From an uncultured Eubacteriales bacterium (GTDB lineage: Bacteria; Bacillota; Clostridia; Christensenellales; Aristaeellaceae), in the NCBI GenBank assembly GCA_944353735.1, contig CALVPU010000215.1:1-26133 (forward strand): a stretch of DNA of 26,133 nt, given 5' to 3'. The notes beneath the pieces are model-generated. The model was not told the origin of the DNA. It made no database searches and saw nothing but the letters and a program-made list of their open reading frames with translations. Below are positions 4,861-26,115 of this stretch, piece by piece (position 1 is the first letter of the stretch; the number at the start of each line of letters is the position of its first letter). The translations under genes and the position numbers were made by a program.

Positions 4861-4918
4861 ACGATTGACAGGTCCCCGCATTTGCGAGGGCCAACCTGCA
4901 AATGGAGGAACGCTGACC

Positions 4919-5923
4919 ATGATGATGAGAAAGCTGCTGGCGCTGGTACTGGCGCTGGCGTTGGCGCTGAGCGCGTGCGCGCTGGCGGAGGAGCCGGTGG
5001 TCGAGGATGTGCCGCTGGCGACCGCCGCGCCCGACGAGGATTTTGACCTCTCCGGCGTGCTCGACGAGGAGATCCTCGCCGACGAGTTCATCTCCGTCGA
5101 GGACTATGCCGAGACCGAGAACCTGCCCGACGACTGGTGGAACATCCTGCTGCTGGGCACCGACAACCGCTATGAGGGCAATACCTACGGCAGGACCGAC
5201 TCAATGATCATCCTCTCGGTCAATCCCGCCACGCTCGAGGCCAAGCTGACCTCGCTGATGCGCGACACGTGGGTTTCGATGTACGGGCGCAGCAGCAAGG
5301 CCAAGCTCAACGCCGCCAGCGTCTACGGCGGTCCGGAACTGACGATGCGCACCGTCAACGAGTGCTTCGGCATGAACATCTCCGACTACGCGCTGATCAA
5401 CATCACCGGCCTGGCGGACGTGATCGACGCCCTCGGCGGCATCGAGCTCGACGTCACCGAGGAGGAGCGCGCCGCGCTCAACCGCGGCCTGTTCGACCTG
5501 TCCTCGCAGTCCGGCATGGAGGAGCTGGAGGAGTCGGGCGAGCAGGTGCACCTCAACGGCAACCAGGCGGTCGCCTTCGCGCGCATCCGCCGCATCGACA
5601 GCGATTACAAGCGCACAGAGCGCCAGCGCGACGTGCTGACCGCCATCGCCGAGAAGCTGCAGGAGAGCAACAACGCCGCGACGATCGTCGGCGTGGTCAC
5701 GTCGCTGATGCCCTACGTCGAGACGAATCTCGATCTGGGCGAACTGATGACGCTCGCCTACGTCGGGCTGCAGCTGGACATGTCGAACGTCGAGCAGCTG
5801 CGCCTGCCCGCGGACGGCACCTTTGACGCCGGCACGTACAACGGCGTGTGGAGCATCCGCCCCAACTTCGACGAGAACAAGCAGATCCTCTACGACTTCA
5901 TCTACGGCGAGGACGAGGAATAG
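4919..5923 (+). CDS. LCP (LytR-CpsA-Psr) family cell-wall glycopolymer transferase
   Basis: NILLLGTD, GRTDSMIILS, SLMRDTWV, KLNAA, LNGNQAVAFARIR and SDYKRTERQR motifs. Start moved to ATG 4919 behind GGAGG. Confidence 0.93.
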   Translation: MMMRKLLALVLALALALSACALAEEPVVEDVPLATAAPDEDFDLSGVLDEEILADEFISVEDYAETENLPDDWWNILLLGTDNRYEGNTYGRTDSMIILSVNPATLEAKLTSLMRDTWVSMYGRSSKAKLNAASVYGGPELTMRTVNECFGMNISDYALINITGLADVIDALGGIELDVTEEERAALNRGLFDLSSQSGMEELEESGEQVHLNGNQAVAFARIRRIDSDYKRTERQRDVLTAIAEKLQESNNAATIVGVVTSLMPYVETNLDLGELMTLAYVGLQLDMSNVEQLRLPADGTFDAGTYNGVWSIRPNFDENKQILYDFIYGEDEE

Positions 5924-5959
5924 GCGCGCCTGCAAACGCCGCGGCGCGCGGAGAACGAA

Positions 5960-5998
5960 AAAGGGCGCTTTCACCATCATGCGGTGAAAGCGCCCTTT
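5960..5998 (+). terminator. Intrinsic terminator after the LCP gene
   Basis: 16-bp perfect stem AAAGGGCGCTTTCACC / GGTGAAAGCGCCCTTT followed by GTTGT. Confidence 0.85.
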
Positions 5999-6023
5999 GT
6001 TGTCAGAAATGCCCGCCGCGGCA

Positions 6024-6682
6024 GGATCGCCCTTCTCGTCGGCGGGAAGGTTTTTCCCATGGCGGCGAAGTGCCCTTCTCGCGGCAGTGCCGTTCCTGCG
6101 GCAGCGCTCTTCCCGAAGCGGAAATGCCTTCTTGCGGCGGGGGCGCTGTAGCGGTGATTTCAATCTCCGCGTTTCGTGAAGGATCGCCCTTCTCGTGAGG
6201 GGGAGCGACTCCGGCACACACATCGCCCCGGGGAGCGTGGGCATTTCAATCCACGCTGCCCGCGAGGGGAGCGACGTCAATTCCCGCGTTTGTGCAGATG
6301 TCAACGATCGATTTCAATCCACGCGCCCCGCGAGGGGGAGGGTTTTCTCATGGCGGGAAAGCGCCCTCTTGCGGCAGCGCCGTTCCCGCGGCAGCGCGCT
6401 CTTCCCGAAGCGGAAATGCCTTCTTGCGGCGGGGGCGCTGTAGCGGTGCTTTCATTCTCCGCGTCTCGTGGAAGAGCGACCTCCCCGCGAGGGGAAGGGT
6501 TTTCCCATGGCGGCGAAGTGCCCTTCTCGCGGCAGTGCCGTTCCCGCGGCAGCGCTCTTCCCGAAGCGGAAATGCCTTCTTGCGGCGGGAGCGCTGTAGC
6601 GGTGCTTTCAATCTCCGCGTCTCGTGAAGGATCGCCCTTCTCGCGAGGGGGAGTTTTTTCTCATGGCGGCGAAGCGCCCTTC
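6024..6682. repeat. ~157-bp tandem repeat tract (about 3.5 units) built partly from degenerate type I-C CRISPR repeats
   Basis: CATGGCGG anchor (ATG) at 6059, 6350, 6507 and 6663, giving periods 291, 157 and 156. The extra ~134 bp in the first period is the CRISPR mini-array. The tract sits between the convergent LCP and SGNH genes. Confidence 0.9.
6157..6340 (-). CRISPR. Orphan, degenerate type I-C-like CRISPR mini-array (2 spacers)
   Basis: Repeats on the plus strand: ATTTCAATCCACGCTGCCCGCGAGGGGAGCGAC (6243-6275, 33 nt), ATTTCAATCCACGCGCCCCGCGAGGGGGAG (6311-6340, lacks CGAC), and a degenerate fused repeat at 6157-6209 ending GAGCGAC. Spacers are 33 nt (6210-6242) and 35 nt (6276-6310). The reverse complement GTCGC...GCGTGGATTGAAAT matches the established I-C repeat pattern. 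No leader or cas genes are in the window. Confidence 0.75.
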
Positions 6683-6690
6683 GCTGCGCC

Positions 6691-7329
6691 TTATCCGATC
6701 AGCTTGCGGACCTCCTGGGCGAGCGCCTCGCCGAGGGCGCGATGCGAGGCGGCGTCCATGTGCACGCCGTCGACCGGCGAGGGTTCGGCGACCGTGGCGG
6801 CGTCGAAAAACGCCGCGCCCTGCGCCTGCGCCACGTGGCGGTAGTAGAAGGCGAACTTCTTGCTCTCCGCATAGCCGCCGCGCAGCGTGCCGTAGGGGTC
6901 GTCGGCGACCGACGGGTGCAGCTGGATCGGCGAGACCAGCAGCACCTTGAACCCGTTGGGGAACACCTCGCTGCTCTCCTTGCGCGCCTGCACGGCGCGG
7001 GCGAGGTCGATCAGGCGCTCGGCGCCCTTCGCGGCGCCAAAGGCGTCGGTGAACTTCAGGTCGTTCGTGCCCATCATCAGCACGAGCAGGTCCAGCGGCT
7101 TTTGCGCCACCAGCGCCATCGGCAGCGCCGCCGCGCCCAGCCGCCACGGGCTCCACGGGTCCTCGTAGACCGAGGTGCGCGCGTTCTGCCCGTCCTCGAG
7201 CACGCGGTAGCCCGCGCCGAGCGCCGACTGCATTACGCCCGTCCAGCGCGTGTCCAGATCGAAGCGCACGCCCGTTCCCGGCGTGTAGCCCCACGTGTTG
7301 GAATCGCCAAAGCACAGGATGTTTTTCAT
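6691..7329 (-). CDS. SGNH/GDSL-family hydrolase (arylesterase-like)
   Basis: ILCFGDSNTWGY (block I), EDGQNAR (II), MMGTNDLK (III), DGVH (V). Start at ATG 7329 behind GGAGG. Confidence 0.93.
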   Translation of the reverse strand: MKNILCFGDSNTWGYTPGTGVRFDLDTRWTGVMQSALGAGYRVLEDGQNARTSVYEDPWSPWRLGAAALPMALVAQKPLDLLVLMMGTNDLKFTDAFGAAKGAERLIDLARAVQARKESSEVFPNGFKVLLVSPIQLHPSVADDPYGTLRGGYAESKKFAFYYRHVAQAQGAAFFDAATVAEPSPVDGVHMDAASHRALGEALAQEVRKLIG

Positions 7330-7375
7330 AATAATGCCTCCGCCCCTTTGGGGTCTGTATTGAATCTCCAGATTG

Positions 7376-7404
7376 ATTATAGCCCATCGCGCGCGTGTGC
7401 GCAA
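7376..7404 (-). promoter_or_regulatory. sigmaA promoter of the SGNH hydrolase gene
   Basis: Minus strand TTGCGC-17 nt-TATAAT. Confidence 0.65.
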
Positions 7405-7613
7405 GATCCTGAGGGGATTTTATTGCCGTTCCGGCGCATCGAGCGACAACAGCCAGGCGCCAGCAAAGGATAAAAAGGGAATTCTGAAGAGAGAGGCTGG
7501 AAGCGTGACCGAACCACGCACGGCAGAGGCGTTCTCCATGGATGGGATATCACGGGCCAACCGCATTGTGTTGGCGGCGCCGGAAAGCACTGTCAGTATG
7601 CGGAGAAGGGCGA

Positions 7614-25681: not shown

Positions 25682-26115
25682 ATTTCGTCATCCCGCCCGG
25701 CGGGAGAATTTTCCACCGCAGGGGCGCGGGGCGATTGACCATGCCGCGCACCTGCGGTGTCGGGGATGCCATTGTGGACGCGAGGGAAGGGTTCGACGGA
25801 TTTCGGCATCCCGCCCGGCGGGCGAACCTTCCGTCGCAGGGGCGCGGGGCGATTGCCCATGCCGCACACCTGCGGTGTTGGGGATGCCATTGCGGACGCG
25901 AGGGAAGGAGGGCGACGGATTTCAGCATCCCGCCCGGCGGGAGAATTTTCCACCGCAGGGGCGCGGGGCGATTGCCCATGCCGCGCACCTGCGCATGGTC
26001 GGGGATGCCATTGTGGACGCGAGGGAAGGGTTCGACGGATTTCATCATCCCGAGCGCGGGGGGGCGCCGCGATGGGAGGGAGGGGAGGCGACGGCGGATG
26101 CCGCACACCTGCGCA
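25682..26115. repeat. ~119-bp tandem repeat tract (3 full units plus a diverged partial), hairpin-rich, REP/BIME-like
   Basis: ATTTC..CATCCCG anchor at 25682, 25800, 25919 and 26039. Copy 1 has a 15-bp stem with one mismatch (25715-25729 / 25744-25758). The tract is directly downstream of the flotillin stop. Confidence 0.9.

Follow-up and report, generated by a model that had tools for sequence, protein, structure and literature searches.

Introduction

CRISPR arrays away from cas genes – orphan, or isolated, arrays whose cognate cas operon lies elsewhere in the genome – were reportedly described by Shmakov and colleagues in 2020. Recombination between CRISPR repeats is one way in which arrays change, duplicating or deleting spacers and repeats. 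Regulatory mini-arrays and solitary repeat units are also known, including CreTA, CreR, and crlRNAs, and neo-CRISPR loci formed by off-target spacer integration are said to have been obtained in E. coli by Nivala, Shipman and Church in 2018. An isolated type I-F array has been described in Pseudomonas aeruginosa ATCC 10145 (PMC13142298). Canonical type I-C arrays are processed by Cas5c (Cas5d); for the enzyme of Bacillus halodurans, what chiefly matters is the site of cutting together with the nucleotides downstream of it, and neither the loop nor the 5′ overhang of the repeat (PMC8524198).

The locus described here lies in a chicken-gut Clostridia genome, between two ordinary genes coding for a LytR-CpsA-Psr (LCP) family protein and a GDSL/SGNH hydrolase. 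The stretch of DNA analysed – the window – is the 26,133 nucleotides of contig C215, part of a fragmented, metagenome-type assembly of 2.15 Mb in 284 contigs that is 74% complete. A first, sequence-only reading had noted a tract of ~157-bp repeats with an enlarged first period, and within it a small CRISPR array of two spacers (S1 and S2) and two recognizable repeats (R1 and R2).

This mini-array shares with orphan arrays its short length, its distance from cas genes, a repeat of the cas-adjacent family, a phage-matching spacer, and a possible use in trans, but it has only two spacers, decayed hairpins and no leader, and sits inside a satellite with degenerate repeat copies. Like canonical I-C arrays (PMC8524198) it has a 33-nt repeat (GTCGC...GGATTGAAAT), spacers of 33-35 nt, a TTC motif for S1, and an intact 11-nt handle in R1 and R2; unlike them, the 8-bp stem of R1 is interrupted, the base of the R2 stem is lost, a third repeat is 20 nt too long, and there is no leader or adjacent cas gene. 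The locus also resembles repeat-mediated spacer duplications, such as that on contig C164 of the same genome where one spacer is duplicated in tandem, in that direct repeats allow unequal exchange and tandem copying of the intervening DNA; here, however, a 107-nt body that is no spacer takes the place of the amplified ‘spacer’, the mediating repeats have degenerated and expanded, and the product is a 157-bp satellite as opposed to a 67-bp unit. As with CreTA, CreR, and the crlRNAs, the array is small, its repeats are degenerate, and the genome has a cognate type I system, whereas the search for a partial self-target was negative, cas genes are not adjacent to the array, and S1 is an ordinary phage spacer. 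The position of a mini-array between housekeeping genes recalls neo-CRISPR loci, but the repeats are true I-C repeats and not duplicated local sequence.

Here, we show that the feature is a real, partly decayed, two-spacer type I-C CRISPR fragment situated away from the cas genes. An orphan I-C array with a cognate system is a known kind of feature, and the unusual aspect is a minisatellite built on degenerate copies of the repeat.

Results

Organization of the locus

The CRISPR sense is the minus strand, and the features of the region, with coordinates in the window, are as follows.

4865-5923, plus strand: LCP family gene (Pfam PF03816, E = 3.7e-37), converging on the repeat region
5955-6003, both strands: strong hairpin (inverted repeat) with T runs on both strands; minus-strand terminator at 5998-5960, 17 pairs
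6023-6049, minus strand: tail of a further partial unit (pseudo-repeat remnant), 84-88% identical to the ends of the other units
6050-6156, minus strand: body of unit 1, 107 nt, 66% G+C, with ~17-nt sub-repeats
6157-6209, minus strand: pseudo-repeat 1, the trailer-side terminal repeat of the mini-array, recognized by local alignments and a joint motif test, with no canonical hairpin in its fold
6210-6242, minus strand: spacer 1 (S1), 33 nt, phage-derived, with a 31/33 prophage match
6243-6275, minus strand: repeat R1, 33 nt, with one uncompensated mid-stem mismatch
6276-6310, minus strand: spacer 2 (S2), 35 nt, for which no protospacer was found
6311-6343, minus strand: repeat R2, whose 3′ 27-30 nt are conserved (6311-6340)
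6341-6497, minus strand: unit 2, a body and a pseudo-repeat (6449-6497)
6498-6653, minus strand: unit 3, a body and a pseudo-repeat (6605-6653), 96% identical to unit 1
6654-6690, minus strand: partial fourth unit, abutting the SGNH stop codon
6691-7329, minus strand: GDSL/SGNH hydrolase gene (Pfam PF13472, E = 2.9e-16), transcribed towards the array and in its sense

The order on the minus strand is therefore SGNH gene, partial unit, unit 3, unit 2, R2, spacer 2, R1, spacer 1, the expanded terminal pseudo-repeat, unit 1 body, partial pseudo-repeat, and terminator. An Rfam scan of 5800-6800 gave nothing relevant. On the plus strand, hairpins derived from the repeat stem and followed by a T run are present at the unit boundaries (6031-6050, 6326-6350, and 6635-6653); they are terminator-like and lie behind the LCP gene’s own terminator, and may be mere by-products of the repeat hairpin.

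Other genes within the 26-kb window code for an L,D-transpeptidase, a choloylglycine-hydrolase-family protein, an AraC regulator, an ABC sugar transporter, PfkB, and an SPFH protein, and no integrase or phage genes are present there. Because these neighbours are those of an ordinary chromosome – with cell-wall, transport, and sugar-kinase functions – a mini-array borne by a mobile element, or an anti-CRISPR solitary repeat, is unlikely; the 26 kb examined give no sign of a phage, plasmid, or island location. In congeners the LCP and SGNH homologues do not lie side by side, and I-C repeat-like DNA accompanies neither when up to 8 errors are allowed; among the species sampled, the locus is specific to that of the window.

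A type I-C repeat and its cognate system

The 135-bp surplus that constitutes the array core has the composition first read from the sequence: CGAC (6206-6209), S1 (33 nt), R1 (33 nt), S2 (35 nt), and 30 nt of R2. The type I-C assignment and the minus-strand orientation proposed at the same time are borne out by R1, which agrees at 30 of 33 positions with the repeat of the genome’s own cas-adjacent array on contig C35, the three differences falling in the loop (two) and the stem (one). In length R1 is within the expected ~32-33 nt, and it belongs to the same GTCGC...GGATTGAAA(T/C) family as that cas-adjacent I-C repeat. It is closer still to the cas-adjacent array repeat of the congener G004 (32/33). 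Across 11 genomes of the genus, only G004 and the window have the GCGA-loop repeat type, and only the larger arrays of the window’s own genome have the GCAT-loop type. The mini-array appears to come from an older repeat generation than the genome’s present cas-adjacent array.

The description of the array as ‘Cas-less’ holds for the 26-kb window, in which there are no cas genes, but not for the genome, where the cognate I-C operon expected of an orphan array is present. Contig C35 carries cas5c (6873-7538), cas8c, cas7, cas4, cas1, and cas2, all scoring over curated NCBIfam cut-offs, followed by a 1.5-kb repeat-rich spacer region, a leader of 44-50% G+C, and a nine-repeat array; a cas3 core is found on C18 and at the end of C35. 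A second array is on C274, and there are further degenerate mini-arrays on C164, on C270, and at C274:3188-3600.

Two regions of these contigs are of interest in their own right. The approximately 1.5 kb of repeat-rich DNA between cas2 and the leader and array on C35 (C35:639-2211) is non-coding, with no NCBIfam match for its open reading frames, and includes a 207-bp tandem repeat in two copies at 802-1216. The degenerate mini-array at C274:3181-3600, 2.6 kb from the C274 array, has a repeat extended to a long perfect palindrome (TTCAATCCACGC...GCGTGGATTGAA) together with an inverted copy of a GCGA-loop repeat, a layout that suggests strand-switch rearrangements in decaying arrays.

Decay of the repeats

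Type I-C repeat RNA is expected to form a stable hairpin of 7-8 bp with an 11-nt tail behind it. R1 retains an intact stem base and 11-nt 3′ part (UGGAUUGAAAU), both identical to those of the canonical repeat, and the 11-nt tail, or handle, is the same in R1 and R2. R2 has its first 4-6 nt (crRNA sense) replaced by unit sequence, with loss of the base of the stem. Canonical repeats fold to a perfect stem of 8 bp, at -16.8 and -16.7 kcal/mol (z about -3), and R1 and R2 fold at only -9.8 and -9.1 kcal/mol, both inside the range of shuffled sequences. The third repeat, pseudo-repeat 1, has the two ends of an I-C repeat, but its length is 20 nt in excess and its fold shows no canonical hairpin; its alignments indicate a degenerate full repeat followed by a partial one. 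No leader is present beside the array, whose flanks are 66-69% G+C compared with 44-50% for the C35 leader, and a promoter-like site was not found at the array. The lack of an AT-rich leader had been noted from the sequence, where a decaying array was one of two options offered, and the decayed hairpins fit that option: the changes in R1 and R2 are uncompensated, as expected under relaxed selection.

The 157-bp satellite

Unit copies are located at 6044-6205, 6336-6497, and 6492-6653, with partial copies at both ends, and their starts are 292 and then 156 bp apart (TRF period 156). The first period is thus 292 bp compared with a unit period of 156-157 bp, much as first described, and as neither 157 nor 292 is a multiple of three the tract is not a coding repeat. 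The second of the two options, that the array travels with an intergenic repeat family, is not supported: by BLAST the 157-bp unit occurs within the assembly at this locus alone, and when 40 relatives were searched at the DNA level only the flanking genes and CRISPR repeats came up.

Alignment to the I-C repeat resolves the last ~49 nt of each unit into two pieces: a full but degenerate copy, matching 19/25 over positions 2-26, and after it a partial copy (positions 14-33). The pseudo-repeat of unit 2 includes a perfect 15-mer of the congener-type repeat, and the alignment score of unit 2 to the repeat was reached by one shuffle in 500 and lies above the 99th percentile for random 350-mers from the genome. 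Moreover, apart from true repeats (C164, R1, and R2), the three units are the only places in the whole assembly with the joint motif TTTCA[AT]TC...CGYGAGGGG, against an expectation of 0.04; the structure lies well outside chance. Alignment and motif together indicate that the unit ends derive from the I-C repeat, a claim that covers the last roughly 49 nt only. For the 107-nt body, the best local score to the repeat (in the U0-U1 region) is not above that of shuffles, and a 12-mer, GCCCTTCTCGCG, common to the first sub-repeat of the body and the pseudo-repeat, hints at a more extensive descent from the repeat.

The sequence-only reading had the array spliced into the tandem repeat at a motif shared by the two. 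Since each unit ends in an inherited degenerate I-C repeat, the shared motif is the repeat’s own 3′ part, present by common descent, and does not mark a splice point.

The genome is unusually rich in intergenic tandem repeats, mostly with unique and unrelated units: assembly-wide, TRF reports 158 loci with a period of at least 25 in 2.15 Mb, many with periods of 90-260 bp and two to four copies. A general tendency of this genome to duplication acts here as well. Two other tandem repeats are inside the window, at 8-447 (period 149) and 25682-26113 (period 118). The 118-bp unit at the window’s right end continues at the start of C57 (C57:2-320), so these contigs are probably adjacent; its boundary, ...CGCGAGGGAAGGGTTCGACGGATTTCAGC..., faintly recalls the end of an I-C repeat followed by a repeat start, with alignment scores (24.5-26.5) at only about the 97th-99th percentile of background. 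Some tandem units elsewhere share palindromic elements, one (...CAAAGGGTCTCAGACCCTTTGG...) on C2, C15, C42, and C72 and another (...CCGGCGGGATTC...) on C161, C180, C182, and C72.

Spacer targets

The search for spacer targets with a TTC PAM, proposed from the sequence, succeeded for S1 and gave no match for S2. In the crRNA sense, S1 matches 31 of 33 nucleotides at G004:C108:22578-22610, with TTC immediately 5′. G004 is Candidatus Faecivicinus avistercoris, a congener represented by a chicken-gut MAG, and its contig C108 carries a prophage. The protospacer is within an 836-aa open reading frame with PHROG tail-protein matches, which lies between a Dit homologue on its upstream side and a second tail protein. 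This site is the sole match of S1 with three or fewer mismatches in 300 genomes of the family. In length, S1 and S2 are within the ~33-36 nt of type I-C spacers, and S1 has the mobile-element origin and 5′-TTC PAM expected of them. The chance expectation for such a match is 1e-7 with uniform base frequencies, and at most 0.003 even at a match probability of 0.35. S1 is, by its match and flanking motif, a genuine phage spacer.

No matches to S1 or S2 were found with exact patterns in IMG/VR and JGI metagenome contigs. Among cultured phage genomes S1 gave nothing, and S2 gave only 20/22-nt chance matches in Klebsiella phages; at three or fewer mismatches in the 300 family genomes, S2 was found in the window alone. 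The first 15 nt of S2 (plus strand) resemble the start of the pseudo-repeat at 13 of 15 positions, and because of this likeness S2 may be partly scrambled itself.

The active array on C35 is directed against the same prophage contig, which is matched by four of its eight spacers (28/34, 34/35, 30/35, and 32/34), with TTT flanks at three of the four sites. The duplicated spacer of the orphan C164 mini-array also matches this contig, at 30/35. As a separate observation, the target of this spacer (from the mini-array at C164:409-560) and that of one spacer of the C35 array (C35:67-638) overlap on opposite strands, at G004:C108 6657-6691 and 6668-6702. Both sites are TTT-flanked, the chance of such an overlap is roughly 1-2%, and the pattern is that expected of primed acquisition or an acquisition hot spot. 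Altogether the G004 prophage, with its Dit and tail proteins at about 6.6-28.4 kb of C108, is targeted by at least six spacers of the window’s genome, linking host and phage across sister species of the chicken gut.

Independent assemblies and strain variation

The mini-array and its junctions recur in sequencing runs of other studies. In run X1 a 322-nt contig covers 6125-6446 with zero differences; in run X2, from another study, contigs cover 6143-6262, 6259-6340, and 6311-6410; and in run X3, from a third, a contig covers 6208-6397. Words from S1-R1-S2 are present in three more runs. An assembly chimera joining a true array to the repeat, which had been named as the finding that would overturn the first interpretation, is excluded because contigs of three independent studies reproduce both junctions.

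The comparison across strains, also proposed at the outset, shows the locus to be polymorphic. In run X2 the pseudo-repeat before S1 has unit-2-type variants, suggestive of exchange between units. Run X3 contains a second, deeper form consisting of 30 nt of S1, 36 other nucleotides, R2, one shortened unit, and the SGNH gene. Pieced together from these fragments, this variant would have a different spacer at the SGNH-proximal position, with R1 partly deleted at a microhomology (CGCTCCCC) common to R1 and S1. Its 36-nt segment has no matches in viral and genome collections or in the G004 prophage contig. The distal spacer is shared between strains, and the proximal spacer and unit number are variable – a pattern that fits an array that once acquired spacers, or recombined, together with a satellite that is still changing.

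Expression and processing

The proposal that the array could be transcribed by read-through from the SGNH gene is plausible from the arrangement of the region, because the array is co-oriented with that gene and there is no minus-strand terminator between them. The only minus-strand terminator-like site between the SGNH stop codon (6691) and the LCP gene is that at 5998-5960, beyond the array. Given that recognition by Cas5c centres on the site of cutting and on nucleotides downstream from it, R1 may still be cleavable, giving S1 the correct 5′ handle. If SGNH read-through crosses the array, a spacer-1 crRNA could still be made, as R1 keeps the stem base and the UGG...handle.

No RNA runs containing S1-R1-S2 words were found. 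One metatranscriptome contig (X16) from another strain variant ends 14 nt beyond 6676, with nothing across the array.

For a regulatory or CreTA-like use of the array, as entertained in the sequence-only reading, a PAM-flanked seed match to a host promoter would be expected, usually in an array within or next to the cas locus. In the 74%-complete assembly neither S1 nor S2 has a TTC-flanked seed or overall match above shuffled controls; the best such seed has 9 nt for S1 and 8 nt for S2, lengths that shuffled spacers reach as well.

Discussion

The explanation we favour, with somewhat more confidence than doubt, is that the locus is an orphan, partly decayed I-C array fragment of an older repeat generation, that the satellite is amplified array-flanking sequence, and that the array is largely a fossil. 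For the order of events, we infer that part of an older I-C array, its repeats bearing the GCGA loop as in the sister species, would have come to lie between the two convergent genes, where its trailer-side repeat degenerated and expanded. Unequal exchange (or slippage) between repeat copies would then have amplified the adjacent 107-nt body and degenerate repeat, flanking the R2-S2-R1-S1 core, and conversion between units probably continues. Unequal exchange would yield a hybrid R2 with its first bases from the unit, as is seen. Since each unit combines the 107-nt body with some 1.5 degenerate I-C repeats, the best reading of the satellite is as array-flanking DNA that was amplified. Two observations sit less easily with this history: the two units with the highest identity (96%), 1 and 3, lie on opposite sides of the array, so that extra conversion or duplication steps are needed, and the likeness of the unit body to the repeat is not above background.

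The reverse order, in which array DNA was put by gene conversion into a satellite that already had a relic of the repeat, is also conceivable.

A possible but rather doubtful alternative is that the array remains in use, with SGNH read-through cut by the genome’s Cas5c at R1 (and weakly at R2), and a spacer-1 crRNA loaded into the I-C Cascade for interference or priming against the Faecivicinus prophage family. The genome does have a cognate I-C system, whose active array targets the same phage, and the R1 handle (11-nt) and stem base are those of the canonical repeat, the parts critical for Cas5c (PMC8524198). There is no minus-strand terminator from the co-oriented SGNH gene to the array, and both spacers are retained in independent samples from several studies; these two points and the intact parts of R1 also weigh against reading the array as a fossil. 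On the other side are the uncompensated mismatches in both hairpins, a pseudo-repeat after S1 without a canonical hairpin, the lack of a leader or promoter-like site, and the RNA data, where S1-R1-S2 words are in no RNA run and the one metatranscriptome is blank across the array, although it is of a different strain. We think that the array is largely a fossil; some residual use in trans may be possible.

A broader version, which we consider quite unlikely, is that the orphan I-C mini-arrays of this genome (those of the window, C164, C270, and C274:3188-3600) are a live long-term memory, transcribed by read-through, with old mismatched spacers that load Cascade and prime acquisition into the cas-adjacent array, while their repeats seed new intergenic satellites. 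A hint in this direction is the overlap, on opposite strands of one prophage, between the site targeted by the orphan C164 spacer and that of an active C35 spacer.

It is improbable that an unrelated, pre-existing 157-bp tandem repeat received a 135-bp array piece (repeat-S1-repeat-S2) at a chance 12-nt microhomology. The surplus is indeed exactly one repeat-S1-repeat-S2 period that enters and leaves at the same motif, and the genome makes many unrelated tandem repeats, but every unit also has the other end of the repeat (TTTCAATC), on the right side and in the right orientation, which chance microhomology does not predict. The rarity of the joint motif (0.04 expected per genome), the perfect 15-mer in unit 2, and the absence of the unit from the rest of the assembly and from 40 relatives also speak against it, and the single-unit strain variant of X3 leans the same way.

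A regulatory or addiction mini-array of the CreTA, CreR, or crlRNA kind, with a guide partly matching a host promoter, is very improbable. Degenerate repeats and small size are typical of such elements, but the TTC-flanked matches of S1 and S2, by seed or in total, do not rise above shuffles – in an assembly that is 74% complete, and from which the cas3 promoter may be missing – the array is not beside cas genes, and S1 has a near-perfect phage match.

Finally, an assembly chimera or a neo-CRISPR locus, for all that the assembly is metagenome-type and fragmented and that off-target Cas1-Cas2 integration into non-CRISPR DNA is reportedly known from E. coli, can be dismissed, the former by the X1 contig without differences and by X2 and X3 contigs bridging U1-S1-R1, R1-S2-R2, and R2-U2, and the latter by near-canonical I-C repeats in R1 and R2 in place of its defining mark, the duplication of local non-CRISPR sequence.

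The favoured reading, an ageing orphan fragment flanked by its own amplified border, reveals no new kind of system. For annotation it is useful to recognize that such satellites could pass for new repeat families or cas-less CRISPR systems. The locus provides a clean example, from nature, of ageing in a CRISPR array fragment separated from its cas genes: its hairpins wear down, its terminal repeat grows longer, and local amplification driven by the repeats gives a minisatellite. One of its spacers still records a phage that is also targeted by the active array. It bears on whether orphan arrays keep adding to immunity or priming.
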